The notes beneath the pieces are model-generated. The model ran no database searches and was not told the origin of the DNA. It saw only the letters and a program-made list of their open reading frames with translations. A stretch of DNA of 64,000 bases from positions 32,001 through 96,000 of the IMG/VR virus record IMGVR_UViG_3300042090_002485. One strand, given 5' to 3'. The translations under genes and the position numbers were made by a program. This DNA is from a virus. Positions 6,361-21,738 of this stretch are shown piece after piece (position 1 is the stretch's first letter; each line of letters begins with the position of its first letter).

Positions 6361-6825
6361 TTAGAACGACGCCGTGTCGCCGCCCGTGTAGAACACGACG
6401 AGCGTCCCGTCGGTGGCGATGTTGTTCTGCAACACCTCCCCGATGATCTGGTTGTTGGTGGTGGCCGGCTGCCAGACGCCGGCACTGAACGTCAGCTTCT
6501 CGCCGACGGTGTAGGTCGTCGCCTCGAAGTTCGAGGGGTCGAGCTTGAACTCCGCGTTCATGCGCAGGCAGGTCACGCTGCCGACGAACGTCGCATCGAA
6601 GTCCGTGCTGTCGGTGACAACCACCCAGGTGGCCACGCTGTTGGCCGCCGAGCGGTTGGGAGTGGTTGCGAGCGCGACCGAACCGTCCGTTTGGACGGAA
6701 ACGACCGACCCAGCCGGCAGCGTGTCGGGCACGCCGGGCGTGGTCTGGTGGATCGGGAAGGTCTCGTCGATGGCACCTTCCTTGGGCCAACCGCGCAGGA
6801 CGTCGAACAGGCTTGCGAGCTTCAT
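6361..6825 (-). CDS. Putative head decoration/cement protein
   Basis: 154-aa beta-rich protein immediately upstream of the capsid gene, with a GAGGA SD. Confidence 0.55.
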   Translation of the reverse strand: MKLASLFDVLRGWPKEGAIDETFPIHQTTPGVPDTLPAGSVVSVQTDGSVALATTPNRSAANSVATWVVVTDSTDFDATFVGSVTCLRMNAEFKLDPSNFEATTYTVGEKLTFSAGVWQPATTNNQIIGEVLQNNIATDGTLVVFYTGGDTASF

Positions 6826-6849
6826 CTGAGTTTTCCTCTTTGGAGAGCG

Positions 6850-7212
6850 CTACGAACTGATGATCCAGGCGCCGAACGCGTCGTAAGCAGCATCGGCCGC
6901 TTCCTTTACGTTCTTGGGTTTGGTGGTCTCGTCCGAATCACGGTCCGTACCCGCGCCGAGCGGCGTGACCACGCCGCCCTGCTTGGCCAGCAAGTCCTCG
7001 ACGACGCCAAGCGACGCGTCGTCGGTCGCGGCGAGCTTCTGGCGGACGTCGTCCGTCATCTCCTCGCCGTGTGCCACGAGGTGAGCCGCCGCGATCTTCT
7101 GAACGCGCGCGTCGCGCGTCGCCTTGATCGCCGAGGTCTTCTCGCGCTCGGTCTGGTCGTAGTAATCCGCGAACGCGTCGACCAGTGCTGCGACCTTGAG
7201 GAGGTTAGCCAC
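6850..7212 (-). CDS. Scaffold-like K-x-A protein (120 aa, GTG start VANLLKVAA)
   Basis: Helical; KVAA, EKTSA, KIAA, KLAA and KEAA. Confidence 0.55.
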   Translation of the reverse strand: MANLLKVAALVDAFADYYDQTEREKTSAIKATRDARVQKIAAAHLVAHGEEMTDDVRQKLAATDDASLGVVEDLLAKQGGVVTPLGAGTDRDSDETTKPKNVKEAADAAYDAFGAWIISS

Positions 7213-7360
7213 GGGCCACCCCCAGCTTGCGGGCGAGCATGCCCAGACCTGCTGCCGCGACGAGTACACCAGCGGCCTTGGCGCGGCGCACATCCTCGCG
7301 ACGGACGTGTTCGGCACGCAGGTCCTGGGCAAGGGCGCGAAGCATCTCGGACTCCTTCAT
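7205..7360 (-). CDS. Small protein of 51 aa missing from the ORF track
   Basis: MKESEMLRALAQDLRAEHVRREDVRRAKAAGVLVAAAGLGMLARKLGVARG. ATGA overlap with the upstream stop; fills the operon gap exactly. Confidence 0.6.
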   Translation of the reverse strand: MKESEMLRALAQDLRAEHVRREDVRRAKAAGVLVAAAGLGMLARKLGVARG

Positions 7361-7569
7361 CGGGACCCCGGCAGGTCGGCGTAGCCGACGTCGATGGAGT
7401 CGTCACGGAGGTTGGCGGCGAGCGCGCGGAGGCCGCGCGCGACCTCGGTGCGGGGCTGGACCTCGGCTGTCTTGACGGCTTGGACCTCGTCCGCGCGCCG
7501 GCGCGCCGACGTTGCCGCGTCGGCGAGGACCTCATCAACGACGAGCGAGAGGTGACGGGTTGCGCTCAC
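7357..7569 (-). CDS. Small K-x-A protein (70 aa)
   Basis: Coupled overlaps on both sides; VKTAE. Confidence 0.55.
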   Translation of the reverse strand: MSATRHLSLVVDEVLADAATSARRRADEVQAVKTAEVQPRTEVARGLRALAANLRDDSIDVGYADLPGSR

Positions 7570-7841
7570 TGGGCGCCCCTGTGCTGGAGGGCGTGGAGCG
7601 CGTCGACGATCTGCGGGCCAGCAAGGCCAGTCGCAACGCCTGCACCGAATCCGACGTTGCCCGCGCGCTGACGGGCCTCCTCATCCCGCGAATGGGTGAG
7701 GCCGCTCGCGAGTGCACCACCCGCGAGCACGCCTGCGCCGCCGGCGAGCAGCGCGGGAACGAGCGCCGGGTAAGCGGCGACCTTCTCACGTGCTGCGCGC
7801 TCGAGGCGAGCGAGGACGTCGGTGTTCACGGCGGCCGACAT
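7566..7841 (-). CDS. Small glycine-zipper protein (91 aa)
   Basis: EKVAA followed by LLAGGAGVLAGGALA and GFGAGVATGLAG. Confidence 0.55.
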   Translation of the reverse strand: MSAAVNTDVLARLERAAREKVAAYPALVPALLAGGAGVLAGGALASGLTHSRDEEARQRAGNVGFGAGVATGLAGPQIVDALHALQHRGAQ

Positions 7842-7847
7842 GGCGAG

Positions 7848-8441
7848 TTAGCGCTGCGCCTCCGCGACGAGGTCGTTGGCGACCTTGAAGCCGGCGACGA
7901 ATGCCTCGCAGCCGAGCTTGTGGATCTGGGTGACCTGCGCGTTCCAGCCCGCGTCGAACGCGCGCTGGTGGAGGTCACGGATTGTGTCCGCTGCGGCGCG
8001 GTAGCCCTGCTGCGCGGCTTCCTTGACGAGGTCGGCGTTCGCCGCGGCGAACTTCTCGAACGTGTCGTCGGTTTGGCCGACCGACGCGGTCTTGACCTCG
8101 ACCGGCGGCAGCTGATCGGCGGCCTGCTTGTACTGCGCGGCGCGGGCCATGAAGCCGTCGCACACCGCGGCGCCGTAGGACTGCGCCTCCTTCATCAACG
8201 CCTCGTGCTCGGCCTTGCTCAGGTCGGCGGCGAGCTTGGTGAGGTCGTCGACCGGCGAGCCTGCGCCCGCGGTCTTGGTCGCCTCGGGCGCCGTCGCCTC
8301 TTTGAGGGCCTGCTTGAGACGCTCGCCGGCATCACCGGACGGAGCCGATGCAGCGGGGGCGGGCGCCGGAGACGGCGCGGGGGCGGACGCGGTCTTCACC
8401 GCGCCGTCCGTTACTGCCGAGAGTGCATGCGAGAGCTTCAT
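7848..8441 (-). CDS. Putative scaffolding/inner-core protein
   Basis: 197 aa helical with many K-x-A motifs (KTAS, KTAG, KLAA, KEA, KQAA, KTAS, KFAA, KEAA, KVAN). Lies between protease and capsid. Confidence 0.55.
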   Translation of the reverse strand: MKLSHALSAVTDGAVKTASAPAPSPAPAPAASAPSGDAGERLKQALKEATAPEATKTAGAGSPVDDLTKLAADLSKAEHEALMKEAQSYGAAVCDGFMARAAQYKQAADQLPPVEVKTASVGQTDDTFEKFAAANADLVKEAAQQGYRAAADTIRDLHQRAFDAGWNAQVTQIHKLGCEAFVAGFKVANDLVAEAQR

Positions 8442-8465
8442 GGGTGGCCGTCTCCGTTACGAGGG

Positions 8466-8475
8466 AAATGATAGG
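8466..8475 (-). promoter_or_regulatory. Putative late promoter CCTATCATTT (scaffold-capsid unit)
   Basis: Intergenic, 26 nt before the ATG at 8441. Confidence 0.6.
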
Positions 8476-8503
8476 AAAGCGGGTCCTCAAAAACAAAACG
8501 CCG

Positions 8504-10261
8504 TCAGTGGCGACTCGTGATGATGTTGCCGAGCTTCTCCGCGACGTCGCCGAGCGCGTCGGACGCGCGTACGTCGACGCCAACGCGCGCGCTGCGCGGC
8601 ACCGCGTTCTCGACGAGGTTGACGATCGACATCATCGACGCGGTCTTCGCCGACAGCTCGGTGATGTCGGGAATCGCGTAGCCCTCGTCGGTCTGCATCG
8701 TGCCGCCGGTGCCATGGTTGCCGATCGCGCGCGCGCCGAGCACGCCTGCGGTCGCGGCGAGAGGCAGGCGGAACTTGCGCAACCACGGGAACGCGCCGAG
8801 CGCCTTGTAGCCGCCGAGCGCAAGCGCTCCGCCGCCGAGTACCTGGTTGCGCATGCGCGCGCGAGTCACTGCATCCTGCGCGTCGATCGCGGCACCGCGC
8901 GTGGTCTCGTAGGGTCCGACGTGCAGCACGTCCGTGGTCGGCGCGGCGTCCTGCCGGAGGCCGACACCTTCGGGAACGAGACGCCGGTAGAGCATCTCGC
9001 CCGCGCCTGCACGCTTCTGCGCCGCGCGCGCGAAGCCGTCCATCAGCGCGGCTGCGACCTTGTGCGACTCGAGCACGCCGCTGTCCAGCAGTTCGTCCAG
9101 CAGGTCAGGGCGGTCGCCGAACAGCTCGAGTGCGAAGCGGCCGGCCGCCGCGAACTTCTCGAACTCGGCCTCCGTGTGCGGCATGCACGTGTTGCTGCAG
9201 CCCGCGAGCTTGCTCGTGGACAGGTACATGAACTCACGGTCGGTGAGCGTGACGCCGTTGGCCGCCGCTGCACTGAGCGACTCGCCGAGCGGGTAGCCGA
9301 GCAGGCCGGCCACCTGGATGCGCGGCGCGCCTGCGAGCTTGGGCGCGAGGTGGTCCTTCAGCTTGACGATGAACGAGCGTTCGTCGGGCGCGAGGTGGCT
9401 CGTCGCGATCGGCTCGCCCTGGATCACCTTGTCGATGTCGGAGAGCTTCTGCACCGCGGCGCCCTTGAGCGCGAGCGCGTCGGATTCCTCGCCGAGCAGC
9501 GCCGACAGGCGAATCTCGGGCGTCGCTTCGGCGACCTTCTTGAGCGTGTAGCCGGTGCGGTCAGCCGGGCGGAACACGCGGCTGATGTCGAAGAAGTCGG
9601 GTGATGGGTTGTGGACGTAGTCCTTGAAGCCGTTCGCGTCGACGACGTTCATCGCGAACTTGACGTGGTCGCAGTAGTCCGCACGCGTCGGCGCCTCGTT
9701 GCCGCAGCGAGCGCAGACGTCGTACTTGATGCGACAGCCCATGCTGACGGGCACGAACTCGCCGTCGGCCGCGCGCTTGACCCACTCGGGGTCCTTGGCG
9801 TCGTCGACCGAGACCAGCAGCTCGACCCGGTGCATGCGCGGGTTCCAGAACGCCTTCTTCACCACGCCCGAGGCCTTCGCCGGGTCGCGGTTGGCGTGGT
9901 GCTGGAACGCGTGTGCGGGGTTGGTCTCGAACGAGTGGTAGTGCTTGGTCAGCTCCTGGCCGGGCGCAACGAACCAGCGGCGGTCGGCGGAGGCGATCTT
10001 GCCGCGCGCGGGCACGGGGAACTCGGGAAAGCCGTCGCCGTTGCGGTTGGGGCCGTAGGTCTCCTCGCCGCCCATCGCGCACAGCAGCATCGCGGTCTTG
10101 CCGGCCTCGGGCGTGACGCTCTTGATGTAGTCGAGCGCCTCGGACGCGTGCTTGGTGATGCGGCTGGTGTCGACCGAGCGGCCGCCGTTCCATGGCAGGA
10201 TGATCTGGGCGGTCAGCTCGCCGGTCGGGAAGAACTCGGGCAGCTCGATGAGCTTCTTCAC
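8504..10261 (-). CDS. Prohead (maturation) protease with long C-terminal K-x-A/glycine-zipper extension (585 aa, GTG start)
   Basis: NRNGDGF, HAFQHH.N, RVELLV, VSMGC..KYDVCARC...CDH and FFDISRVFRPAD match the phage prohead serine protease pattern. GTGA overlap at 10258-10261. Confidence 0.7.
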   Translation of the reverse strand: MKKLIELPEFFPTGELTAQIILPWNGGRSVDTSRITKHASEALDYIKSVTPEAGKTAMLLCAMGGEETYGPNRNGDGFPEFPVPARGKIASADRRWFVAPGQELTKHYHSFETNPAHAFQHHANRDPAKASGVVKKAFWNPRMHRVELLVSVDDAKDPEWVKRAADGEFVPVSMGCRIKYDVCARCGNEAPTRADYCDHVKFAMNVVDANGFKDYVHNPSPDFFDISRVFRPADRTGYTLKKVAEATPEIRLSALLGEESDALALKGAAVQKLSDIDKVIQGEPIATSHLAPDERSFIVKLKDHLAPKLAGAPRIQVAGLLGYPLGESLSAAAANGVTLTDREFMYLSTSKLAGCSNTCMPHTEAEFEKFAAAGRFALELFGDRPDLLDELLDSGVLESHKVAAALMDGFARAAQKRAGAGEMLYRRLVPEGVGLRQDAAPTTDVLHVGPYETTRGAAIDAQDAVTRARMRNQVLGGGALALGGYKALGAFPWLRKFRLPLAATAGVLGARAIGNHGTGGTMQTDEGYAIPDITELSAKTASMMSIVNLVENAVPRSARVGVDVRASDALGDVAEKLGNIITSRH

Positions 10262-10809
10262 GGCAGCAGGCTCCGCAGCAGGCGCGCGCCGTCGCCGCGG
10301 TGGCGCACGAGCAGCACGAGCGCGGCGTGCTTGGCGTCCGGGTCGGACAGGGCGCACGCGGCCTCGAGGACATCGTCGACGAGGATCGCCGCCGCGAGCT
10401 TCTGTGGGGACGACAGTGCGCCGGCCATATCGTCGTTGGTCGCGGGGCTCGGGCGGCTGAGCTTGCTCTTGAGCAGCTCGCCGAGGCCCTGCATGCCGCC
10501 GACGCCGGCGGCCGTCATCAGCGCCTGGTTACGCGCGTCACGCAGCAGCTCGTGACCCTGGTTGCCGGCGTCGCGCGCGAGTAGATGGCCGACGCCGAGC
10601 GCAGGGATGCCCAGGCCGACACCCCAACCCAGGCCGCGCTGCAGCGCGGACATCGCTGCGGGGTCGATTGCAGCGCGCTTGAACATGCCGAACGCGGCGA
10701 AGTCAGCAAGCGCGGCGCGCTCGAGCAGCGTGGCCGACGGCGGGCGCGCCGACGCGATCTTCTCCGCGAGGAGGACCGACGTCTCGAGGGCCTGGTTGAG
10801 CGCGGTCAT
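10258..10809 (-). CDS. Inner-head K-x-A protein with Gly-rich hydrophobic helices
   Basis: KIAS, KRAA, KLAA and KHAA; GLGWGVGLGIPALGVG. Confidence 0.55.
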   Translation of the reverse strand: MTALNQALETSVLLAEKIASARPPSATLLERAALADFAAFGMFKRAAIDPAAMSALQRGLGWGVGLGIPALGVGHLLARDAGNQGHELLRDARNQALMTAAGVGGMQGLGELLKSKLSRPSPATNDDMAGALSSPQKLAAAILVDDVLEAACALSDPDAKHAALVLLVRHRGDGARLLRSLLP

Positions 10810-10813
10810 GGGG

Positions 10814-11083
10814 TCACCGCGCCGGTGCGACGGTGCGCCGTAGCAGCTCAGCGAGCGCGGAGTCCTCAGCGATCTTGGTGCCGGTCACCGCCGCGAGCGC
10901 GCCGAGGCCGTCGGCGATTGCGCGCGCTTCCTTGCGGCGGCGGTACGCGCGCTCGCCGATGGTCTTGACCGCGACGCCGATGTTCAACTCGGGGACGCCG
11001 AGCATCGCGCCGGCGATCTTGTGCAGGCCGTGGTGCGCGACGGCCGCGGTGACGGAGGGCGGGATGAGGTCATCGAGGGTCAT
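10814..11083 (-). CDS. Small K-x-A protein (89 aa, start MTLDDLIPP)
   Basis: GAAAGGA SD upstream; KIAG, KEA and KIAE. Confidence 0.55.
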   Translation of the reverse strand: MTLDDLIPPSVTAAVAHHGLHKIAGAMLGVPELNIGVAVKTIGERAYRRRKEARAIADGLGALAAVTGTKIAEDSALAELLRRTVAPAR

Positions 11084-12188
11084 CGTGAGTCCTTTCACCG
11101 ATAGGCTGCAGCTCGTACGCCTTGGGTTGCGGAAACAACCATTCGGACAAGGCGCCTCCACCGGCACCGAGTGCGCCGCCGAGGCCTCCGCCGATGAGTG
11201 CGCCGCGTGCGCGATGTTTGTCGTCGGACAAGGCTCCGCCGAGCGCCCCCATTCCGGCACCCGTCAGGCCACCGAGCGCCGTGGACTTCAGGATGTCGGT
11301 GGGTCGGTCTTTGCGCGCTTGCTCGGCTGCCATTTCGAGCAGTTGTTTGATGGCCTGGTCGTGCGACATTTCGGCCGCGCGCTTGTCACCGCCGCCGGTC
11401 ACGGCGCGCTCGGCGTCGGCGAGCAGCTTGATCGACATGTAGTCCGGGCCCGCGCCAGTCATCACGGCCTGGCGGAGGAACGAGCGCACCGCGTTCTCGT
11501 CGGTGGACAGCACGGGCGCGAATCGCGTCATGCTGTGGTACGCGCCCATCAGCGTGGCGTCGTCGGCACCGGCGAGCACCGAGTCGGTCTTCTTGAGCTT
11601 GCCGACGATGGCCTCGCGCGCGGCCTGGTCGCCAGCATGCCCGACGGCCTCCACCGCCTTGGCGGCCATGTCGCGGAGCAGGCCGAAGCCGGCCTTGCCC
11701 GCCTCGGCGCCGAACGCCTTGGCCGCTGCGCCGCCGCCGATGCCGAGCGTGTCCTGCCGCTCGCCCAGCTCGCGGCCGAACAGCTTCTTCTCGACGAGCG
11801 AGCTGAGGCCGTGGGCGACACCCTTGCCGGGCGCCGCGCCGATCTCGCCCAGGCTGCCCTTCGCGCCCTCGAGGAGCCCGCCGCCGATGGCTTGGCCGGC
11901 GCCCATCGCGCCGCGGCCCGCGGCTCCTGCCGCCGCGCCCGCCGCCGCCTTGGGGTTGTGGAACAGCTGCGCGAGCGGCAGCGCGAGCTGCATCGGCAGC
12001 GCAGCGGTCTTCGGCAACGACGCCTCATCGACGGCGTGCTCGGTCGAGTGCGCGCGCTCGAGCGCCCTCTCGACGATGCTGGGGATCATCGCGCCGACGG
12101 CGAGCGGCAACATCACGCCAGCGCGCTTCTGCGTGTGGCGCTCGAGCGCACGACGGGTGGTCAGCGCGAGGACGTCGCTCAGCTGCAC
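11070..12188 (-). CDS. Gly/Ala-rich inner-head protein with glycine zippers
   Basis: KRAG, KTAA and KRAA; C-terminal LGGLTGAGMGALGG and ALIGGGLGGALGAGGG. Confidence 0.55.
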   Translation of the reverse strand: MQLSDVLALTTRRALERHTQKRAGVMLPLAVGAMIPSIVERALERAHSTEHAVDEASLPKTAALPMQLALPLAQLFHNPKAAAGAAAGAAGRGAMGAGQAIGGGLLEGAKGSLGEIGAAPGKGVAHGLSSLVEKKLFGRELGERQDTLGIGGGAAAKAFGAEAGKAGFGLLRDMAAKAVEAVGHAGDQAAREAIVGKLKKTDSVLAGADDATLMGAYHSMTRFAPVLSTDENAVRSFLRQAVMTGAGPDYMSIKLLADAERAVTGGGDKRAAEMSHDQAIKQLLEMAAEQARKDRPTDILKSTALGGLTGAGMGALGGALSDDKHRARGALIGGGLGGALGAGGGALSEWLFPQPKAYELQPIGERTHDDPR

Positions 12189-13102
12189 TGGATCCTCACG
12201 AATTCCGCGCCGCGGCGCAGCTTGTCAGCTTCGGCCGCGATGCTGGCGAGCTTCTCGAACAGGCGCGTCGCCTCGTTCTCGGTGACGAGGTGGCGGTCGA
12301 CCAGCGCGGCGTGCTTGGCGCAGATGTCTTCGTGCGTCAGGGGCGGCAGGCGCCGCGACTCGCGCACGAGGTTGAGGACGACGGCGCCGAACGCGTCGCC
12401 GCGCAGCGCCATCGCGTCCTTCTCGAAGGCCTCGAGCGACGGGCCGCCCCAGGCGCGGCTGAGCGAGCGCTCGAGGGCTCCGAACGTGTCCTCGAACAGC
12501 CACTCGGCCTGCTTGTACTGGTCCTCGAGCACAGAGGCGAACTTGCGCCGGCGCTCGCCGCGGAACGCCGCTTCCTTGGCCTCGTCCTTCTTCGACTCCT
12601 TGGGCGGCTCCTTCTTCTCGGGCTTGTCCTTCTTGCCGTCGTCGTCCTTGGACTTCTGCTTCTCGCCCTTGGGGAACGGCCCGTCGTTGTCGTCGTCGAT
12701 CGGTGGTTCGCCCTTGGGCTCGCCGCCCTGGCCGCTGGCCATCATGGCCTCGCCTTCGCCGATCTCGTTGGGCAGCGGCCCCTCGTCGCCGTCGGGCTCA
12801 GCGTGCGGCGGTTCCTCGTGCGGAAGGTCGACGCCGCCCATGATGTGCTGCAGGACCTGGCGCGGGTCGATTGGGTCGAACTCGCCGGTCATGTCGGGCA
12901 CGCCCTGCTGCTTCTGTTGTTCCATCAGCCGCAGGAACGCCATCGTGTTCGCGGCCTGGACAAGGCGCGCGACCTGATCGGGGTTGAGCTGCCCCTGTTG
13001 CGCTTCCATCGCGGCCATGTCGGCGAGCTTCTCGCCGCTCATGAAGCGATCGACCACCCGCTGGGCCATTTGGTCGAAGTCCTTCTCTTGGTAGGCGCGC
13101 AT
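12179..13102 (-). CDS. Inner-head K-x-A protein with charged linker
   Basis: EKLA, a K/D/E-rich stretch ending in AKEAA, KFAS, KQAE, KHAA and KLAS. Confidence 0.55.
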   Translation of the reverse strand: MRAYQEKDFDQMAQRVVDRFMSGEKLADMAAMEAQQGQLNPDQVARLVQAANTMAFLRLMEQQKQQGVPDMTGEFDPIDPRQVLQHIMGGVDLPHEEPPHAEPDGDEGPLPNEIGEGEAMMASGQGGEPKGEPPIDDDNDGPFPKGEKQKSKDDDGKKDKPEKKEPPKESKKDEAKEAAFRGERRRKFASVLEDQYKQAEWLFEDTFGALERSLSRAWGGPSLEAFEKDAMALRGDAFGAVVLNLVRESRRLPPLTHEDICAKHAALVDRHLVTENEATRLFEKLASIAAEADKLRRGAEFVRIQCS

Positions 13103-13779
13103 CAGTGGACGATCTCCTCGCGGGGCACGGCGGCTCCCGCCTCATGCGTCAGCTCGCGGAACTTGAGCTTGGCGAGCAGGTCGGAGAGGTTGCCGCCGGT
13201 GCCGCCATCGGAGACGAGCGCGGCCGCGTTCATCGCGGTCTTCAGCATGCTGTGCGCGGCCGAGCCCTCGGTGCTGTTCAGCGTGTTCATGCGCAGCGTG
13301 CGCATGCTGCGGAAGTAGGCCTCGCGCATCGTCTGCTCTTGGACGTGCGACGCAGAGAGCTTGGACTCGCGACCGGAGTGGTGCGCGAGCGCCTCGACGC
13401 CGTCGAAGTGGGTGGCGACCGCGAGCATGGCGCGACCGAGCGGGCTGCCCTCGTAGTTCCGCACCCATCGCAGCAACTCGAGTCGGTCGCGGAAGTTGGA
13501 CAGGTTGCAGCACAGGTGGCGGAATGCCGGCAGCACAGCGAGCGAGACGCCGATGTCCTGGTGGATGCGCGTGTCCTCCGCCCCCGCGATGATCCAGGCC
13601 TGGACCTGCTCACGCTCGAAGAACGGGTCTTCATAGAGGTCGACGACGCGCTCCATGACGTCGGAGAACACGACGCCGTTGAGGTGGCGCCACAGCGCCT
13701 GCTCGTGCTCCTGCTTCGGCTCTTCGGCCATACGCATGACCGCGAGGTAGCGCGAGTCGGGCTTGCGCTCACGCCGCAT
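13102..13779 (-). CDS. Hypothetical protein (225 aa)
   Basis: Normal composition, coupled within the operon. Confidence 0.55.
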   Translation of the reverse strand: MRRERKPDSRYLAVMRMAEEPKQEHEQALWRHLNGVVFSDVMERVVDLYEDPFFEREQVQAWIIAGAEDTRIHQDIGVSLAVLPAFRHLCCNLSNFRDRLELLRWVRNYEGSPLGRAMLAVATHFDGVEALAHHSGRESKLSASHVQEQTMREAYFRSMRTLRMNTLNSTEGSAAHSMLKTAMNAAALVSDGGTGGNLSDLLAKLKFRELTHEAGAAVPREEIVH

Positions 13780-16700
13780 GATCGTCCGGCTCCTTTACGG
13801 CCTGGACGCCGCGGGACAGGCGCAGGACGAGGTCGCCCAGGCCCTTGAACGACGACTGCATGTTCTCCTCGATGCCCGCGAACGCGGCCTCACCGATCTG
13901 CTGCTTGAGATCAGGCTCCTGCATCCACAGCGTGAGCTGCACGCGGGCGAGGTTGTCGACGGCCTTCTCGAGGTTGGGGAGGTACTGCGCGACGACGCCG
14001 TGCAGCTCGGGTGACTGCGCGAGCGTGGCGACGGCCGCCGCGTCGAACATGTCGGCGGAGCGCATTTGCGCGACCTGGTCGAGGAACTGCGGGTTGATCT
14101 CCTGCCCCATCGCCTGCGCGTTTGGGCCGTCGGAGGGCATCATCGCCGACGGCGGCGGCTGTCCGCCGCCCATCGCCGGATCCATACCGCCCATGCCGCT
14201 CATGCTCGGGTCGCCACCGGGCATGCCACCCGACATGCCGCTCATCATCGACGGGTCCATGCCAGGCTGCCCACCGCTGGGCATGCCGCCGCCCATGCCG
14301 CCGAACATCCCGCCCATCGACGGGTCGGCGCCGCCGCCCATCATCGACGGGTCGCCGGCGCCGGGAGGGAACGGGCCGCCCGGAGGCATGCCCGGAGGCA
14401 CGGCCGCGCCCATCGACGGATCCTGCGGCGGTTGGCCCATACCCGCGGTCATGCCGGGAGGCATGCCCGGCCCACCCGTCGCGAGGTTCATCGACGACGG
14501 AGGCGCACCCATTGCTTGCGACTGCACGGACGCGGCAGGCGGTGCGCCGCCGCCGATCTCGCTCGAACGCTGCAGCAGCTGTTGGATCGTCTGTTGACGG
14601 TCCATCAACTTCTGCATCTCGTGCTGGATCGCTTGGTCCATCTCCATCGCTGCGAGGTCGAGCGGCGCCGGCGGGGGCGGAGCAGGCGGTGGGCCCATTG
14701 CTGCCATGGCCGCGTCTTGTCCGAGGTTCGGATCGCCCATGCTCGGATCGCCGCCCGGCGGACCCGCGTCAGCGCCGCCGTTCGGCGGAGCCTTCTTCTT
14801 CGGCTTGCTATCGGACTTTTTCTTGTCGTCGCTGTCATCGGCACCGAGCTTGCCCAACAAGCCACCTAACGCACCGCCCATCATTGCACCGCGCTGCGGT
14901 GCTCCGGGTAGTTGCGGAGCTTGGGGTTTCTTGGCGAGCAATCCCTTGAGAGGACCTCCGAGTGATGCAGGACCGCCCGAACCTCCCATCGCACTGCTGT
15001 CGACGAAAGACGAGGTTTTGTCACCTGCAGCGATCTTGTCGAGGCGGATTTGTGCGGTCGCGAGCTGCGCGCGCGTCGCGATCCACGCCGTTGCCGAATG
15101 GTCGGACGCGGCCTTCGTGAGCAGTGCCTCGGCGTCGTCGACGGAGATGTTGCATCCGTGAGCGAGCTTCTTGAGCGCGGGAACGAAGCTCAGCGGAGCC
15201 ATTCCGTTGATCGAGAACTGCTTGGCGCCCGCGTCCTTGATCGCGACCTTCTTCGCGCCCACGGCCGAGAGCATGCTCGAGACGCACGCCTGCAGGTCGA
15301 GCGCGGAGCGATACCAGCCGCGCTCGTCGAGCTTCTCGCCGAGCGGGATCCAGATGAAGTCCGGCGGGAGGTAGACGACGTCGGCGCCCTTGGGCATCCA
15401 GATCGCGCCGTAGGGGTGCGTCGGGTCGGTGCAGACGGTCTTCTCCGGGTAGCCGCCAATCCCGCTGATCTTCAGGCGGCGCACGCCGTCGCTGCCGGTC
15501 GACATCGACTTGACCTCGACGGGCACCGTTGCCTGGTAGACCGAGTGGAGCTTGCGGACGAAGAAGCCCTTGCCCGTCCGCGGTGCACCGTCGACCTTGT
15601 CGAACAGGCGTTCCTGGAGCCGGCCGGCAACGTCGTCAGCGACGGAGCTGCGCCCGACCAGACGATCCGTCATGAGGTACTTGCCGTCGCCGAATGCGGC
15701 GAGGTACGGCTTCGCGGTGTAGTCGCGCTTGGTCGCGTAGTCGGCCTCGTTCGGGCGCCCGACCGGGTAGACCTTGTTGTTGGGCCCGAAGTTGTCGGGG
15801 TCGCGGTACGAGTTGTCGACGACGGGGTTGTGCGCCGGGATCGCCGGGCGCCGGCCGTAGCGCGTGCCGTCGTCGAGCAGGTCGATCGGATCGGGCATCA
15901 CGAACGCGTAGCGCTCGCCGCCGTCGGAGCTGTAGAGGCAGTACACGCCCGGCTGGTTCGGTTCGGTCCAGTGCGCGAACGGCTGCTCCTGCACCGCCAT
16001 GTTACGGGTCAGACGCTCGTCCTTGGCGGCAAAGCCCTTCTTGCGCACGCCCGCGTAGGCCTCGCCGGCCTGGTCACCGAAGATGCGGCGGAAGTCGGTC
16101 GGCGTGTTGTCCTTGTCGGCGATCCACAACGCACCGCCAGACAACTGCTTGGCCGCGACCTTCTCGAGGCGCGGCTGGACCGCGCGCGACAGCGCCGCGA
16201 CGCCGTAGAACGCCGCTGCCGTCTTGAGCAGGCGGGGGTGGCGCTTGAGCGTGGCGACGAATGCGGTCTTCACCCGGTTGGGTGCGGCTTCGAGCATGCC
16301 GATGAACATCGGCGCGGGCTCGGCCGCTTCCTTTTCGCGCGCGTCGAGGTACTCGCGCGAGACGACGCGCGAGGCGTCGTAGATCGCCTTGGGCATCCAC
16401 GCCGCGTACGAGAACCGGCCCGTGATCGGCGGCACCACGACGTTGCGGATGTCGACGTCGGTGTAGAGCGTCTCGGGGGTCTTGATGCCCTTGCCCAGCG
16501 CCGAGAGCGCTGTCTTGTCGATCTCGTCCAGCCAGCCCTTGGTCAGCGGCAGGAAGATGTTGAGGGTCTTGTGGAAGAAGACCTCGAGCGGCTTGATCGT
16601 GTTGTCGACGAGCACGACCGGGATGTAGATCGGCTGGTCGTTGCGGAGCACGATGAACGCGCCCACGCCCGCTCCCTTGTCGACGTCGGCCTTGATCACC

Positions 16701-16858
16701 TTGAAGGTGACGACGTCCTGCATGACGTCGGGCATCTTCGACGACAGGAGGTTGTAGGCCATGTCGGACATGCCCTGCTCGAAGAGCTGGGCCTCCTGGT
16801 CCGGGCCGGCGTTCATCCCGGCCTGGAACTGCTGAGTGCGCGGGCTGAGCGGCGGCAT
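13769..16858 (-). CDS. Large virion protein (1029 aa) with K-x-A motifs and Pro/Gly/Met low-complexity C-terminal region
   Basis: EKEAA, KTAA, EKVAA, KIAA and KLGA; repeated DPSM(M)G units; GAGG SD. Confidence 0.6.
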   Translation of the reverse strand: MPPLSPRTQQFQAGMNAGPDQEAQLFEQGMSDMAYNLLSSKMPDVMQDVVTFKVIKADVDKGAGVGAFIVLRNDQPIYIPVVLVDNTIKPLEVFFHKTLNIFLPLTKGWLDEIDKTALSALGKGIKTPETLYTDVDIRNVVVPPITGRFSYAAWMPKAIYDASRVVSREYLDAREKEAAEPAPMFIGMLEAAPNRVKTAFVATLKRHPRLLKTAAAFYGVAALSRAVQPRLEKVAAKQLSGGALWIADKDNTPTDFRRIFGDQAGEAYAGVRKKGFAAKDERLTRNMAVQEQPFAHWTEPNQPGVYCLYSSDGGERYAFVMPDPIDLLDDGTRYGRRPAIPAHNPVVDNSYRDPDNFGPNNKVYPVGRPNEADYATKRDYTAKPYLAAFGDGKYLMTDRLVGRSSVADDVAGRLQERLFDKVDGAPRTGKGFFVRKLHSVYQATVPVEVKSMSTGSDGVRRLKISGIGGYPEKTVCTDPTHPYGAIWMPKGADVVYLPPDFIWIPLGEKLDERGWYRSALDLQACVSSMLSAVGAKKVAIKDAGAKQFSINGMAPLSFVPALKKLAHGCNISVDDAEALLTKAASDHSATAWIATRAQLATAQIRLDKIAAGDKTSSFVDSSAMGGSGGPASLGGPLKGLLAKKPQAPQLPGAPQRGAMMGGALGGLLGKLGADDSDDKKKSDSKPKKKAPPNGGADAGPPGGDPSMGDPNLGQDAAMAAMGPPPAPPPPAPLDLAAMEMDQAIQHEMQKLMDRQQTIQQLLQRSSEIGGGAPPAASVQSQAMGAPPSSMNLATGGPGMPPGMTAGMGQPPQDPSMGAAVPPGMPPGGPFPPGAGDPSMMGGGADPSMGGMFGGMGGGMPSGGQPGMDPSMMSGMSGGMPGGDPSMSGMGGMDPAMGGGQPPPSAMMPSDGPNAQAMGQEINPQFLDQVAQMRSADMFDAAAVATLAQSPELHGVVAQYLPNLEKAVDNLARVQLTLWMQEPDLKQQIGEAAFAGIEENMQSSFKGLGDLVLRLSRGVQAVKEPDDHAA

Positions 16859-16873
16859 TATGGGTGACCTCGG

Positions 16874-17050
16874 TCAGGACGTCGGGAAGGAGACGACCTT
16901 CGGAATGGGAGCGTTGGGTGTGCTGGGCCCGGTGCCCAGCTCTCGGGTCTTCTGCGCCTTGAGCGAGGCCAGTGTCGGCATCGCGATCTCGGCAAGCTTG
17001 TCTTCGACGGCGCGAAGCCCGGCGAGGCGGATGTGGCGAGGAAGGCTCAC
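16874..17050 (-). CDS. Small protein with leader-like motif (58 aa, GTG start)
   Basis: VSLPRHIRLAGLRAVEDKLAE...; GTGA overlap with the upstream stop. Confidence 0.5.
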   Translation of the reverse strand: MSLPRHIRLAGLRAVEDKLAEIAMPTLASLKAQKTRELGTGPSTPNAPIPKVVSFPTS

Positions 17051-18369
17051 GCCGCGCTGCGCTGGGCGGCGTTGATGCGCTCGATCTCGGCCTTGAGGGC
17101 CGCCTTCTTCTCCTCCTCGTGCTTCATCCACGGCGGCAGGTCCTTGTCCTTGTCCTTGTCCTTGCCGTCGTCGTCCTTCTTGTCCTTGTCGTCGTCCTTC
17201 TTCTCGCCCTCCTCCTTCTTCTCCATGAAGGGCGGAAGCTCGGCCGACTTGGTGCCCTGGTTGCCTCCGCGCCCGTCGTAGGCGCCGGGCCGCGAGTGCG
17301 TCGCCTCGGGGGTGTGGTTCTTGTAGCCGTCCGTGCGCGAGCCCGGCGGGACCGCCGCGGGCGTCGCCGCCGCGGTCTTCTCGGACGCCTCCTTCTGGAG
17401 GCCCGTCAGGTAGTGCGCCTTCTCGACGACGTTCAGGCCCATGCACGCGCGGACCGCGGCGACTTTGCGGTCGTCGTCGAACGACGCGGGCAGGTACTCG
17501 GCGACCTCGGCAGCCGTTTTCTTGAACAGCGCGATGTAGGGGTCCTCCGCCGCAGCCTTCGCCGAGTGCTGCTGGACCGAGTTCGACTTGTCGTCGGTGC
17601 GGGCGGGGGCGTTGGGCTGCGTGGTCTCGCGGCCGACGACGGCCGGGCCCTTCACCTGCTTCATCACCTCGCCGAGGCTGCCGACGCCGGCGACACCGAA
17701 CGTCGCATAGCCCGACGGGCGCTGCTCGGCGTCCATCTTGGCCTCGGCGGAGCCCATCGCCTTGTTGCCCTTGTCGCCGCCGAGGATTGTCGAGCCCTCA
17801 GCCTGCTTGAACAGGCTGCGCAGCGTCTCGGACGCGGTGCGCGACTGCTCCTGCGGCGAGTTCGACTTGTCGTCGCTGCGCGCCGGCTTGTTCGGGTTCT
17901 CTTCTTCCTTGCCCACCGCACCCGGCTTTGTGTCGACCTCGGTCTTGCCGAGGCTGTCCGTCGCGTAGCCCGGCGGGCGCTGCTCGACGTCCATCTTCGT
18001 CTCGCCGGCCGGCGACTGCTTCTCCTCGTTGCCCTTGTCGCCGCCCTCGATGGTCGAGCCCTCGGCGAGCTTCGTCATCAACTGGATGACGCTGTGGTTG
18101 GCGAGCTTGTGCACGTCCTCCCACGAGCTGAGCTTGTTGAAGGACGCCGCCTTGAACCCCGGCCGGCCCTTGAACCAGTCAGATGCCGCGATGACCTCGT
18201 TCGAGACCTTGACCACGACGTCGCGACCGATGTCCCGGCTCAGGTCGATCTCGACGCGGTCCGCGATGAGGTCCGCGACCTTGTGTGCGGTGGTCTCGTC
18301 GGGGAACGAAGCGCGGCCTGCGTTGACCAGCGCGGTCTGGATGCCACGAACGAAGGCGTGCTTGAACAT
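17047..18369 (-). CDS. Inner-head protein with leader motif and two ~90-aa tandem repeats (440 aa)
   Basis: Start reassigned to MFKHAFVRGIQTALVNAG (AGGAG SD). Repeats begin KLAEGSTIEGGDKGN and KQAEGSTILGGDKGN. Confidence 0.65.
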   Translation of the reverse strand: MFKHAFVRGIQTALVNAGRASFPDETTAHKVADLIADRVEIDLSRDIGRDVVVKVSNEVIAASDWFKGRPGFKAASFNKLSSWEDVHKLANHSVIQLMTKLAEGSTIEGGDKGNEEKQSPAGETKMDVEQRPPGYATDSLGKTEVDTKPGAVGKEEENPNKPARSDDKSNSPQEQSRTASETLRSLFKQAEGSTILGGDKGNKAMGSAEAKMDAEQRPSGYATFGVAGVGSLGEVMKQVKGPAVVGRETTQPNAPARTDDKSNSVQQHSAKAAAEDPYIALFKKTAAEVAEYLPASFDDDRKVAAVRACMGLNVVEKAHYLTGLQKEASEKTAAATPAAVPPGSRTDGYKNHTPEATHSRPGAYDGRGGNQGTKSAELPPFMEKKEEGEKKDDDKDKKDDDGKDKDKDKDLPPWMKHEEEKKAALKAEIERINAAQRSAA

Positions 18370-18396
18370 GCGGCTATCTCTCCTGGGGAACGGGTG

Positions 18397-18405
18397 AATG
18401 ATAGG
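18397..18405 (-). promoter_or_regulatory. Putative late promoter CCTATCATT
   Basis: Intergenic, upstream of the AGGAG SD and ATG at 18369. Confidence 0.6.
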
Positions 18406-18432
18406 GCGGCATTTGGCAATTCCCAACGCGGG

Positions 18433-18645: not shown

Positions 18646-18660
18646 GGCGTCTTGTCCCTG

Positions 18661-19101
18661 TTAGAAGAGGCGTCCGACTGCGTGTCCGAGGCCGCGACCT
18701 AGCGCCATCCCGATCGGCGCGACAGCGAGTCCGCCTGCTTGACCGCCGTACATCATGCCCGCGAGACCGCCGATGCCGCCGAGCAGGCGCGCCGCGCGGC
18801 CCTGCTCGGGGTCGCTGTGCATCATGCCGGGAAGCGCAGCCAGCGTGCCGAGGGTGCCGATGCGGCCCAGCGTCTGGCGAACAGGTTGGCCGGGCAGCGT
18901 CGGCCACAGCACCTGGCGCGGGTGCAGCGCGCCGCCCGCGCGGAACGCGGCGGGCCCCTGCACGAACGCCTCCGGTCCCATGCCGACCAGGCCGAGGTTG
19001 CGTGCCGCGCTGATCCCGGTGTCAATGAGGTTGGCCTCCTTGAAGCCGAAGCGCGCGCGGGCTGCTGCCGCGCCCGCTTCGTGTGCACTGGCGATGGTCA
19101 T
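18661..19101 (-). CDS. Glycine-zipper protein with leader motif (146 aa)
   Basis: MTIASAHEAGAAAARARFGFKEAN; LLGGIGGLAGMMYGG and IGMALGRGLGHAVG. Confidence 0.6.
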   Translation of the reverse strand: MTIASAHEAGAAAARARFGFKEANLIDTGISAARNLGLVGMGPEAFVQGPAAFRAGGALHPRQVLWPTLPGQPVRQTLGRIGTLGTLAALPGMMHSDPEQGRAARLLGGIGGLAGMMYGGQAGGLAVAPIGMALGRGLGHAVGRLF

Positions 19102-20879
19102 CAGTAGCCTCCGTCCTGGCCGAGACCGAACTCGGCACCCGCGACGTACGCCGGCACCGGCGAGGCGCCGTGCAGGTTCGACACGTCGCCGCGGTGGATG
19201 CCCGCGAGCAGAGACTCCTTGAGGTAGCGGTGCGCCAGGCGCGCCATCCAGTCGGGGTTCAGCAGCGGCGTGCGCGACGCGGCGCGCATGACGGGCACCG
19301 CGCGGGGCCCGGTCGTCGCGATCGGCACTGACGTCACGCCGTGGCGCGTGAGCTGCTCGACCATCGGCGGCGTGATCATCGTGCCCGCGGTGTGGTGAAG
19401 CACGGTGTCGGCCAGGGTCTCGCCGACCGCGTCAGCCGTCGGTACGCGGCGCTTGTCGGCGGCGAGCGCGGCGTGGAAGCGGTTGTAGTCGATGACGTCG
19501 CCCTTGAGGAACGCGTCGTCTGGTCCGGGGTCGACGACCTGGACGTAGTTGAGCACGCTCTTCGCGAGCGTCTCGAGGTGGCGCTTGTCGACCTCGGAGC
19601 CTGAACGCTTGTAGACGTCGGCGAGCGCGTCGACGAGGTAGCGCCGGCCCTCGCCGAGGCCCTTGTGCTCGACGACCTCGTCGGGCTTGGGCACGCCGTC
19701 AGAGAGCTGGTCGCCGGCGTAGACCGACTGGCCCGGCGCGACGAGGACACGGTGCTCGGGCGCCACGTAGTGTCGGGTGTCCCCGACGGTGACGTAGTGC
19801 CCGCCCTGTGGCGCGGCCTCGATGCCCTTGACCTCGCCATCGAGCCCGGCGAGCACTGCTTTGTGGGCGAACGACGACGGCACCTCGAGCAGCGAGCGCA
19901 CGCCCTTGATGCCCTCGAGTTTTTTCTCGTCGTCAGCGCGCGCGACGCGGCCGCCGTGCTTGGCGTTGAGGCTGAACTGCGTGAGCGGCTCGCTCAGCGC
20001 CTGCGCCGCGCGCACGCCGACGTTGGTGCCGATCGGGTGCAGACCACCCGCGGGCGCGAGACCCTGGCACTTCTGGCAGACGCCATGTGGCGCCTCGCAC
20101 GTCATTGGCGAGCGCACGGTGACGGTCTTGCCCTCGCGCGTCAGCTCCGACGCCAGTGCCGGCGTGACCAGGCGCCCGTCGGTGAGGTAGCGGTCGATGA
20201 CGTGCGGGTCCGACCCGAGCATCGCGATGCCGTTCTTGGTGCCGCAGTCTGGCGTCGTGATGAGCTGGTCGCCCATGTTGTTGACGAGGATCTTGGCGAG
20301 GTCGCCTGGCTCGACGACGGAGATGTTTGAGAGCACCGCGTTCACGCGCGCCTCGCCGCCGGCGACCCACGCATCGGCGGGCTTGAGCCCCTCGGAGAAG
20401 CTCCGGTCGATGAGCCACGGTACGACCTTGCCCTTCGAGTCGCGCACCATCACCGGCGCGCCGACCGCGCGCATCAGCTGCGCGGCGTTGCCGCGGCCGC
20501 CGGAGCGGACCATGTCGCCCATCGTGCCCGGGTGCTTCTTGGCGACGCCGAGCATCGCGTCGAAGCCCGCGGCGAGCGCCTTCTCCTTCTCGGCCGCGGT
20601 GCCGGCGCGGCGGAACGCGGCTGCGTGCGGGCCGAGCGCGGCGTCGCGCTCCTCGCGCTTGGGCGCGATGTCGTCCAGCCCGACCGAAATGCCGTCGAGC
20701 GTCGCGACCTCGTCGCCGACGCGCTTGAGCTTGGTGACAGCGTCGGGGTAGCCGCGCGGATCCTCCTTGGCGAGGCCGACGAGCAGCTCGTTGAGCGAGC
20801 CCTTCGTCAGCTCGCCGCGTCCGCGCCACTTCGGCGGCAGCGCGGAATCTACGAGGTGGCGACCGAGCGTGGTGGGCAC
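19101..20879 (-). CDS. rpoC: RNA polymerase beta' subunit, C-terminal half
   Basis: TTLGR start, GISVGLDDI, bridge helix (GLKPADAW...EPGDLAKILV), DCGT...RSPMTCEAPHGVCQKC zinc site, and trigger loop GVRAAQALSEPLTQFSLNAKHGG. Confidence 0.9.
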   Translation of the reverse strand: MPTTLGRHLVDSALPPKWRGRGELTKGSLNELLVGLAKEDPRGYPDAVTKLKRVGDEVATLDGISVGLDDIAPKREERDAALGPHAAAFRRAGTAAEKEKALAAGFDAMLGVAKKHPGTMGDMVRSGGRGNAAQLMRAVGAPVMVRDSKGKVVPWLIDRSFSEGLKPADAWVAGGEARVNAVLSNISVVEPGDLAKILVNNMGDQLITTPDCGTKNGIAMLGSDPHVIDRYLTDGRLVTPALASELTREGKTVTVRSPMTCEAPHGVCQKCQGLAPAGGLHPIGTNVGVRAAQALSEPLTQFSLNAKHGGRVARADDEKKLEGIKGVRSLLEVPSSFAHKAVLAGLDGEVKGIEAAPQGGHYVTVGDTRHYVAPEHRVLVAPGQSVYAGDQLSDGVPKPDEVVEHKGLGEGRRYLVDALADVYKRSGSEVDKRHLETLAKSVLNYVQVVDPGPDDAFLKGDVIDYNRFHAALAADKRRVPTADAVGETLADTVLHHTAGTMITPPMVEQLTRHGVTSVPIATTGPRAVPVMRAASRTPLLNPDWMARLAHRYLKESLLAGIHRGDVSNLHGASPVPAYVAGAEFGLGQDGGY

Positions 20880-20880
20880 G

Positions 20881-21273
20881 TCACATCCCGGGGTAGCCGC
20901 TGCCGCCGCCCATCATCATCTGTTGCTGACGGGCCTGTTGCTCGCGCTTTGCCTGGTTGTGCCGATGGAGCATGTAGAGCGCGCCGCCGGCGAGCAGCGA
21001 CGGCGCGAGCGTGCGCATGTTGCCGAGCGCGTTCTGGCGTGCCTCCATGCCGAGCGCGGGCGTTGCTGCGCCGCCGAGACCTTGGCGGAGGTTGCCGTAA
21101 AGGTCCTTCGCAGCGCCCATCTGTCCCTGTCCGAACGCCTTGGCACGGTCCATCAGGCCGGGCCCCGCGGGCGCGGGCGGCGCTGCGGGCGTCGACATGA
21201 ACGCGGGGTCGTTGGCGAGCTTGAAGAAGCGGATGGCGGCATCGCGGCCGCGCGCGGTGGAGTCGTTCAGCAT
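20881..21273 (-). CDS. Small protein with leader motif and hydrophobic helix (130 aa)
   Basis: MLNDSTARGRDAAIRFFKLAN; SLLAGGALYML. Confidence 0.6.
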   Translation of the reverse strand: MLNDSTARGRDAAIRFFKLANDPAFMSTPAAPPAPAGPGLMDRAKAFGQGQMGAAKDLYGNLRQGLGGAATPALGMEARQNALGNMRTLAPSLLAGGALYMLHRHNQAKREQQARQQQMMMGGGSGYPGM

Positions 21274-21734
21274 CAGAACACCGTTCCGATTGATGTGGGC
21301 TGGCCCATGTCGCTGAGCCGGTTCGCGGTATCACCTGCCGACAGGTTCGACGGCGCGCCCCACGAGGTGGAGCGGTCGAGCGGGTCGCGCGCAGACAGCT
21401 GGTCGCCGGGTGACAGCGGTGAGTCGAGGCCGCTGAGCGCGGCTGCGAGGTCGTCGGCCGAGCCTAGGCTCGCGCGTTTGGCGTTGCGCTCGTGCTCGGT
21501 CTTGAACGCCTCGTCCCAGCCGTGGAACTCGCGGCGCGGGATCTTCAGGCGGATCTCGGCGGAGGCTTCCTTGAAGCCGAACTGCTCGAGCGCGGCGGCG
21601 GCGCCGAGCACGAACGAGTGCTTGACCTTCTCGGGGAGCTTCTTGTCCTTGGGCGTCGCATCCTCGAACTCCTTGGCCAGTTCGGGGTGGCGGGCGTACA
21701 TGAACCGCCGCTGCGCCTGGGACTTGAAGGGCAC
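21273..21734 (-). CDS. Small protein: PFKSQAQRR mini-domain plus leader motif (153 aa, GTG start)
   Basis: MPFKSQAQRRFMYARHPELAKEFE...KLPEKVK, then HSFVLGAAAALEQFGFKEAS. The start is 5 nt after TATAAT. Confidence 0.6.
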   Translation of the reverse strand: MPFKSQAQRRFMYARHPELAKEFEDATPKDKKLPEKVKHSFVLGAAAALEQFGFKEASAEIRLKIPRREFHGWDEAFKTEHERNAKRASLGSADDLAAALSGLDSPLSPGDQLSARDPLDRSTSWGAPSNLSAGDTANRLSDMGQPTSIGTVF

Positions 21735-21738
21735 GACC

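Follow-up and report, generated by a model that had tools for sequence, protein, structure and literature searches.

A Lys-x-Ala motif concentrated in the head module of an uncultured large phage as the probable recognition site of its own prohead protease

Background

Herpesvirus assemblins cleave at the consensus (V/L/I)-x-A↓S, where the arrow marks the scissile bond. Among phages, T4 gp21 reads L/I-x-E and the enzymes of phiKZ and SPN3US read S/A/G-x-E or A-x-E, cutting after Glu, and C-terminal autocleavage of the protease is known for the phiKZ gp175 and SPN3US gp245 systems (PMC5694885). The mapped sites that we found for prohead proteases of the T4, phiKZ and SPN3US type all lie after Glu. 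Here we analyzed a stretch of 64,000 nucleotides (IMG/VR record IMGVR_UViG_3300042090_002485, positions 32,001 to 96,000; hereafter the window, meaning this whole 64-kb stretch), which is part of a single 145,212-bp contig of an uncultured phage with an Ala-rich proteome and 66% GC, and whose minus-strand head-morphogenesis module carries a head-maturation protease gene. A first-pass annotation of the window had proposed that the motif K-x-A followed by a small residue is the cleavage code of this protease. Our results on enrichment, conservation, placement and protein fold support that proposal: the phage's own prohead protease probably recognizes K-x-A and most likely cuts after Ala (Lys at P3, Ala at P1 and a small residue at P1').

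If true, K-x-A↓small would be a new specificity for this fold in phages, and one that resembles the Ala↓Ser rule of the herpesvirus assemblins. The phages concerned are large (about 120–200 kb), encode packaged-type multisubunit RNA polymerases (RNAPs), and are abundant in metagenomes and almost unstudied. A literature search returned no mapped cleavage sites for Salmonella phage Arash, Bacillus phage G or the cluster C mycobacteriophages, which are relatives considered below, and no report of a Lys-x-Ala specificity for a phage prohead protease.

Methods

Genes were called by their codon-position signature (GC content higher at the first than at the second position and high at the third), with some gene starts remaining uncertain. 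Observed K-x-A counts were compared with 2,000 composition-preserving shuffles of each protein, and expected counts refer to these; in patterns such as K.A a dot stands for any residue. In a blind scan, 1,600 residue pairs (gaps of 0–3) were scored over every gene between 6361 and 19101, none of them preselected, in order to avoid selection bias. Conservation was assessed in seven distinct metagenomic relatives, whose module proteins are 50–70% identical to those of the window. The protease was modelled with AlphaFold (AF2) from 42 diverse homologs and compared with 48,161 PDB representatives using VIA-align, as well as with Foldseek and hhalign.

Results and discussion

Enrichment of K-x-A in the head module

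Ala stands at position +2 after 37.6% of the lysines in the head module, compared with 14.3% expected from the Ala content (p = 3e−19), while the remaining window proteins show 10.0% versus 10.6% expected. The per-lysine, Ala-corrected comparison suggested by the first-pass annotation bears out the enrichment in head genes. Pooled over the nine most enriched proteins, K-x-A occurs 82 times versus about 30 expected (z about 12) and K.A[ASGN] 52 times versus 9.5 (z about 14), and both excesses are unchanged when the shuffles are confined to 20-residue blocks. The signal is register-specific, as KA, K..A, K...A, A.K, R.A and E.A show no comparable excess. The blind scan of the module placed K.A first (80 versus 32.3, z 8.4; the runner-up scores 4.2), L.E and I.E were not among its top patterns, and the phiKZ-type pattern [SAG].E is at chance (51 versus 53.6 expected). 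A Glu code of the phiKZ or T4 type was rejected, as it is not enriched.

The same scan of the rest of the window found no K.A excess, its top patterns including C..C instead, and the RNAP subunits, the helicases that are also encoded in the window, the terminase and the other window proteins carry K-x-A at chance. Over the full 145 kb of the genome, an excess is found only in the module around the protease, in the gene at 51759 and, weakly, in three outliers outside the window, which may be further head cargo encoded away from the module (Table 1). Codon use at the motif sites equals background in three phages of differing GC content; selection therefore acts at the protein level, and a DNA-level motif was rejected.

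All motif instances quoted in the first-pass annotation are present, i.e., KHAS (residue 37), KIAS (88), KKVAE (241–245), KFAA (369), KVAA (401), KRAG (416) and KTAS (539) in the protease, and the capsid TKEA, which it had placed near residue 32, at residues 30–33. It was right about the abundance of the motif in a 197-aa protein and in the product of the 51759 gene, but its counts of about nine and about seven were too low, as both have 11; the five copies that it gave for a 120-aa protein roughly match the gene at 6850–7332, which has four (five or six in orthologs).

Replication in other phages and the T4 control

By their protease, the closest cultured relatives are Arash (gp222, 37% identity) and the Vibrio phages D69, D181 and D148, with phage G (gp19) and the cluster C mycobacteriophages being more remote; a megablast of the region against cultured phages gave no match. 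The head module is syntenic with Arash gp218–gp227, where the gene order is the same: RNAP, the structural proteins gp218–gp221, the protease homolog gp222, the small structural proteins gp223–gp225, the major capsid protein (MCP) gp226 and the major tail protein. Gene order and synteny with Arash thus place the protease gene in a head module, beside scaffold-like and major capsid genes.

In Arash (53% GC), K.A was the top pair of the blind scan over gp218–gp225 (44 versus 19.7), the excess coming mainly from gp220, gp222, gp223 and gp225, with the other proteins of the locus lacking it. K.A was also first in the syntenic module of D69 (50 versus 20.7, z 6.4), in which a 269-aa protein has ten K-x-A sites, each followed by A, S or G; D69 proteins outside the module lack the excess. 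The protease family is very large (3,275 clusters at 50% identity), and among 112 representatives of such clusters the median ratio of observed to expected K-x-A is 2.3, with 92% of them above 1.5; of 400 pairs scored in their divergent C-terminal parts, K.A comes first (428 versus 188) and L.K second.

As a positive control, the same blind scan was applied to T4 gp67, gp68, gp21 and gp22, and it returned I.E first and L.E third, with the excess concentrated in the scaffold gp22 (16 versus 5.7) and in the protease itself (7 versus 2.6). The I/L-x-E code of gp21 is established experimentally, so the scan recovers a known code, and a genuine code of a prohead protease can be expected to show up as a dense P3-x-P1 excess in scaffold, core and protease. 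The K.A signal in the window module is stronger than T4's own signal.

Counts are also raised in phage G gp19 (8 versus 2.4) and in Myrna gp97 (15 versus 7.3), and a diluted form of the code may be present in phage G and the cluster C mycobacteriophages as well. Weak K-x-A traces were seen in phage G (L013: gp7, gp14, gp19 and gp21) and in Myrna (L014). The record of Myrna annotates gp97 as a tape measure protein, yet it has the protease domain.

Conservation and extended form of the site

Among the metagenomic relatives, the Lys and the Ala of the motif are each 86% conserved, compared with 62% for other Lys, 57% for other Ala, 61% for all positions, 63% for the middle residue and 61% for the residue after Ala (Mann-Whitney p = 7e−5 for Lys and 3e−9 for Ala). 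For 52 of the 66 sites, at least 70% of the relatives have both residues in the corresponding alignment columns, and every ortholog maintains its motif count. Numbered for the predicted cut after Ala, the logo is common to three lineages, i.e., L/M/I at P5, E at P4, K at P3, a variable P2 and A at P1, followed at P1' by S in Arash and D69 and by A more often than S in the window. Ala followed by Ser was counted 12 times versus 3.1 expected in Arash and 18 versus 3.9 in D69, and the Ala at P1 with a small P1' residue on which the first-pass annotation had based its herpesvirus parallel is present in the logo. The logo is asymmetric, with information running from P6/P5 to P1' and little beyond, and the full form of the site is (L/M/I)-(E)-K-x-A followed by S, A or G.

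The protease

The protein consists of an N-terminal leader, a catalytic core (residues 40–244) and a long C-terminal extension. Its only family-level hits were PHROG 18299, 'head maturation protease' (E 5e−8), and PHROG 2774, and PDB sequence searches found nothing for either the protease or the MCP. In the structure model, residues 41–244 are confident, with a predicted local distance difference test (pLDDT) score of 85–97 in the core. The best structural match of the modelled core was T4 gp21 (5jbl; Z 10.3, root mean square deviation 2.9 Å over 129 residues), the protease of varicella-zoster virus (1vzv) matched with Z 9.4, and the top Foldseek hits were all herpesvirus proteases, although weak (E 7e−3). 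The modelled core has the fold of T4 gp21 and the herpes assemblins, serine proteases of clan SH (T4 gp21 S77, herpes S21, HK97 S78 and phiKZ S80).

Three invariant residues are candidates for the catalytic triad (H122/S173/H199, spaced by 51 and 26 residues). A weak hhalign match (E 0.08) pairs Ser173 with Ser140 of T4 gp21; Ser173 is the only one that is convincingly mapped, as the same match aligned T4 His85 with H117, which is not conserved, and stopped short of the third residue. Between Ser173 and His199 lies a Cys cluster, C176-x6-C183-x2-C186-x10-C197, which may be a metal site, and for which we know of no counterpart in T4 gp21.

Motif sites mark the boundaries of the fold. At the N-terminal edge of the core, pLDDT rises from 48 to 86 at K37-H-A39, and across 108 diverse family members the first K-x-A lies at median residue 33.5, compared with 106 in shuffled sequences. 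At the C-terminal edge, K242 and A244 are at least 90% conserved across the family, and among the 84 members with the RPAD core motif, 82 have a K-x-A no more than 22 residues after it (78 of them at 10–12 residues). The last K-x-A of the 108 members lies at a median of 29.5 residues from the C-terminus, versus 110 in shuffles, which in the window protease corresponds to K539-T-A541.

In two of the relatives, the protease (L011:8384-11221 and L010:5099-7921) contains inteins (Hint/LAGLIDADG; PF05203, PF14528 and PF14890), inserted at two different points, one after V-S-M-G and the other before C-D-H-V-K-F, which bracket the catalytic Ser/His region and flank the Cys cluster. The equivalent points in the window protease, which has no intein, are after Gly175 (about 9737–9739) and before Cys197 (about 9671–9673).

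The major capsid protein

Arash gp226, to which the window MCP was matched, is an annotated MCP and is among the most abundant proteins in virion mass spectrometry; the MCPs of the metagenomic relatives are 89–94% identical to that of the window, and no Pfam or NCBIfam family was found for it. Its only K-x-A, K31-E-A33, aligns with K27-E-A29 of Arash and D69 and lies shortly before the conserved core sequence, and G-R-x-K-E-A is kept in 120 of 120 retrieved MCP homologs, the remainder of which is depleted about 5-fold in K-x-A (0.28 per sequence versus 1.54 expected). The predicted cut would leave an MCP of 279 residues. The published mass spectrometry covered 86.6% of the Arash MCP, where the ceiling would be 90.6% if a 29-residue leader is lost; this is compatible with leader removal, but not decisive. 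A structure model of the MCP (mean pLDDT 45.5, from a shallow alignment of 72–93% identity) was too low in confidence to place K31-E-A33 relative to the HK97 core.

Head-module proteins and their leaders

The first K-x-A falls at residues 13–40 in 13 of 21 module proteins and in 3 of 33 others (Fisher p = 5.6e−5), and the layout of a leader followed by K-x-A-(S/A/G) is repeated in the Arash and D69 homologs. By motif position, these leaders resemble the capsid-targeting sequences of T4. The orthologs of the scaffold-like protein between the protease and capsid genes hold 10–13 sites each, and its counterparts in Arash (gp223) and D69 are also enriched; if it were cut at all of its sites, its largest piece would be 46 aa. 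Pfam and NCBIfam offered no family for this protein or for the putative portal. The 307-aa protein is, by position and length, the counterpart of Arash gp220 (K-x-A 10 versus 3.1). The product of the 51759 gene, which lies outside the module, is predicted to be head cargo.

The 372-aa protein matches Pfam Gly-zipper_YMGG at residues 302–346 (E 5.5e−5, below the Pfam cut-off). A glycine-zipper-like hydrophobic segment is also found in the C-terminal extension of the protease (residues about 472–515), and segments of this kind are an unusual feature of proteins inside the head. Within the 459-aa protein, K-L/Q-A-E-G-S-T-I-x-G-G-D-K-G-N is repeated, with two copies about 90 residues apart; this protein also has a C-terminal K/D-rich tract, and no family match.

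Table 1 Features of the window and weak K-x-A outliers elsewhere on the contig (G000:C1). Counts are given as observed vs. expected; positions are window coordinates unless preceded by G000:C1
Feature	Position	Strand	Remarks
Major capsid protein, 312 aa	5392-6330	-	40% identity over 297 aa to Arash gp226
K31-E-A33, sole K-x-A of the capsid protein	6232-6240	-	Predicted maturation site removing a 33-residue leader
Small head-module protein	6850-7332	-	About 117-160 aa, start uncertain; 4 K-x-A-A; K.A[ASGN] 4 vs. 0.47; orthologs 5-6
Two small genes, 70 and 91 aa	7357-7841	-	Each leader ends K-x-A; orthologs 1-2 sites each
197-aa Ala-rich scaffold-like protein	7848-8441	-	Between protease and capsid gene; K.A 11 vs. 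3.4, z 4.7
Prohead protease, 585 aa	8504-10261	-	GTG start at 10261; K.A 14 vs. 4.2
K539-T-A541 then S, 44 residues from C-terminus	8639-8647	-	Predicted tail-release site; kept in 6/6 aligned relatives
K242-V-A244 then E, C-terminal core edge	9530-9538	-	Predicted release site; pLDDT collapses at 245-250
His199, candidate third triad residue	9665-9667	-	Invariant; 26 residues after Ser173; putative role
Cys cluster C176-C197	9671-9736	-	C183, C186 and C197 invariant family-wide
Ser173 in V-S-M-G, candidate catalytic nucleophile	9743-9745	-	Invariant in 42 diverse homologs
His122, candidate catalytic His	9896-9898	-	Invariant in 42-homolog alignment; putative role
K37-H-A39 then S, N-terminal core edge	10145-10153	-	Predicted leader-removal site
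183-aa head-module protein	10258-10809	-	16-residue leader ending K-I-A-S; 4 sites vs. 1.1
Small head-module protein, start uncertain	10814-11260	-	3 K-x-A vs. 0.9; orthologs in all relatives
372-aa glycine-zipper protein	11070-12188	-	20-residue leader ending K-R-A-G; K.A[ASGN] 4 vs. 1.4
307-aa head-module protein	12179-13102	-	K.A 7 vs. 2.6; orthologs 7-10
1029-aa head-module protein	13769-16858	-	K.A 13 vs. 7.0; 4-mer 7 vs. 2.2
459-aa Lys-rich protein	17047-18426	-	K.A 15 vs. 6.1, z 4.1; leader ends K-H-A; orthologs 10-15
146-aa protein adjoining RNAP beta'-C	18661-19101	-	Leader ends F-G-F-K-E-A
RNA polymerase beta'-C	19101-20879	-	Separate 592-aa gene; Rpb1 domain 5
Two small proteins, 130 and 155 aa, between RNAP genes	20881-21740	-	Leader ends R-F-F-K-L-A and F-G-F-K-E-A-S
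Endo VII-like endonuclease gene	21741-22376		Between RNAP beta'-C and beta::beta'-N fusion
RNA polymerase beta::beta'-N fusion	22348-27762	-	1804 aa; Rpb2 domains then Rpb1 domains 1-2
Large terminase	47052-49769	-	905 aa
329-aa protein outside module	51759-52748	-	ATG at 52748; K.A 11 vs. 2.2, z 6.5; 22-residue leader ends K-L-A-A
Weak K-x-A outlier protein	G000:C1:92026-92784		Outside window; 4 vs. 1.6
Weak K-x-A outlier protein	G000:C1:130748-132829		Outside window; 8 vs. 3.8
Weak K-x-A outlier protein	G000:C1:133879-134286		Outside window; 5 vs. 1.8

Comparison with described head proteases

T4 gp21 (MEROPS S77) resembles the window enzyme not only in its fold, but also in the position of its gene beside scaffold-like genes in a head module, in the P3-x-P1 register, in the enrichment of the code in both scaffold and protease, in short N-terminal leaders that end at the first site (the T4 internal proteins) and in the N-terminal trimming of the capsid protein, which is a prediction here. 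The T4 substrates relevant for comparison are gp22, gp67, gp68, gp23, gp24 and the capsid-targeting leaders of the internal proteins. Unlike T4, which cuts after Glu, the conserved residues here are Lys and Ala, and neither L/I-x-E nor S/A/G-x-E is enriched; the window protease, moreover, has no Pfam S77 match, has 585 aa versus 212, with a C-terminal extension of 340 residues, and carries a Cys cluster in its core.

With the herpesvirus assemblins (MEROPS S21; UL26/UL80), it shares the fold, and the logo places Ala at the putative P1 and Ser or some other small residue directly after it. As in UL26, the polypeptide continues beyond the protease domain in a long extension, and motif positions suggest one site at the core end and another about 30–44 residues from the C-terminus, similar to the R and M sites. 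It differs in having Lys rather than an aliphatic residue at P3 and in lacking sequence-level membership of the family; scaffold-like proteins are also separately encoded here, the sites are far more numerous, and their cleavage is predicted only. The phiKZ gp175 and SPN3US gp245 systems, whose phages package a virion RNA polymerase, are likewise found in large phages with multisubunit RNAP genes interleaved with head genes and with the motif in many head proteins, but they cut after Glu, whereas [SAG].E is at chance here, and the nearest protease relatives of the window enzyme are instead Arash, the Vibrio D69 group, phage G gp19 and the cluster C mycobacteriophages.

Predicted processing and alternative explanations

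If K-x-A is the recognition site of the protease, head-core and cargo proteins would enter the prohead with N-terminal leaders of 13–40 residues, and the activated protease would remove these leaders at the first K-x-A. It would also trim 33 residues off the capsid protein at K31-E-A33, free its own core at K37-H-A39 and K242-V-A244 and its own tail at K539-T-A541, and cut the scaffold-like proteins at many sites, leaving pieces no longer than about 50 residues and thereby making space for DNA. We infer the cleavage, the bond and the fate of the fragments from the statistics, conservation and placement of the motif and from the modelled fold. A cut after Ala is favoured because the unconstrained middle residue would be odd as P1', because the preference for small residues directly follows Ala, and because the P5/P3/P1 alternation fits an extended-strand substrate and the P3-x-P1 register of enzymes with the same fold.

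Several observations weigh against this interpretation. Cleavage is so far a prediction, with no product seen in this phage or its relatives, and the Arash mass spectrometry was published without peptide lists. The Arash homologs of the module proteins, including the protease, were reported at 80–100% coverage in a particle preparation from a sucrose gradient (116 proteins), and therefore either these proteins are not fully degraded and expelled or the preparation holds immature particles or free protein; crude as it is, this preparation does not support a full degradation and expulsion of the module proteins. The protease matches no curated family (no Pfam or NCBIfam hit to S77, S78, S21 or S80 at E ≤ 0.1). 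Its sites at residues 55, 135, 162 and 201 are buried in confident strands or helices of the modelled core; the structure itself may account for their conservation, in which case the count would be too high. At the MCP site of the window clade, P1' is Glu or Gln and not a small residue. Finally, the packaged-type RNAP beta fusion has 12 K-x-A, which is the chance level, and therefore K-x-A is not generally avoided; avoidance in proteins that must stay intact holds for the MCP, while the RNAP beta fusion and the non-module proteins as a whole do not show it.

Alternatively, K-x-A could be a short linear motif with no role in proteolysis, by which core and cargo proteins dock to or pack against, for example, the shell, the portal or the protease and so become incorporated into the prohead. 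It does mark proteins that co-assemble in the head, the Arash homologs persist in particle preparations at high coverage, and cleavage is still a prediction, but the 10 or more copies in each scaffold-like protein, the copies throughout the protease and the single MCP site 30 residues into the protein fit processing better, the sites lie at the boundaries of the protease fold, and the known cleavage code of T4 leaves the same statistical signature in the same protein classes; we thus consider docking unlikely. Somewhat more doubtful still is a protease recognition element with the scissile bond elsewhere, either after Lys, as in the HK97 maturation cut at Lys103↓Ser104, or some residues further downstream. 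The position of a bond cannot be read from sequence statistics, conservation is as high for Lys as for Ala, and the Glu at P1' of the MCP site fits the small-P1' rule badly. A cut after Lys would, however, make the unconstrained residue between Lys and Ala (63% conserved, i.e., background) the P1' residue, the small-residue preference comes right after Ala, and both the P5/P3/P1 alternation and A↓S match the register of the herpes assemblins and of the T4 and phiKZ enzymes with the same fold.

Cleavage of the sites by a host protease has a precedent in staphylococcal phage 80alpha, whose capsid and scaffold are matured by a host enzyme. We regard it as very improbable here, as the motif is common to phages of very different hosts (Salmonella, Vibrio and the unknown host of the 66% GC phage) and always travels with the phage-encoded protease family, including the divergent tail of the protease itself. 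An artefact of composition, repeats or mis-called genes was tested and rejected, and we give it next to no credence: although the genome is GC-rich and Ala-rich, two sites of the 459-aa protein are supplied by its internal repeat and some gene starts are uncertain, the excess survives local shuffles, is register-specific, is missing from 45 other proteins of the same genome and recurs in phages whose GC content is 53% or lower and whose codon usage differs, and the sites are positionally conserved.

Processing by the phage's own protease thus remains the probable explanation. The density and conservation of the motif and its restriction to head proteins allow scaffold, core and probably also ejected cargo proteins to be recognized from sequence alone, with their mature ends predicted as well. 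We put forward, as a tentative idea with somewhat less than an even chance, that the protease family, most of which comes from uncultured phages, is a phage-borne assemblin, with a herpes-like Ala↓Ser specificity gated by Lys at P3 and a UL26-like layout (leader, core, release site, scaffold-like extension, maturation site and tail). In that case, the code would be sufficiently dense and specific for the complete head-core and ejected-cargo proteome and its mature ends to be read from sequence in hundreds of uncultured large phages, and the family would be a missing link in substrate specificity between the capsid proteases of phages and herpesviruses.

Other features of the window

The two RNAP genes are separated by the endonuclease gene and the two small leader-tagged proteins (window 19101–27762, minus strand). 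A LAGLIDADG domain lies inside the large terminase (47052–49769, minus strand) at residues 291–367, and a borderline one in the RNAP beta::beta' fusion at 1013–1057 (22.0 bits versus a Pfam cut-off of 22.5). Both are probably inteins, and the lineage therefore appears to be intein-rich.

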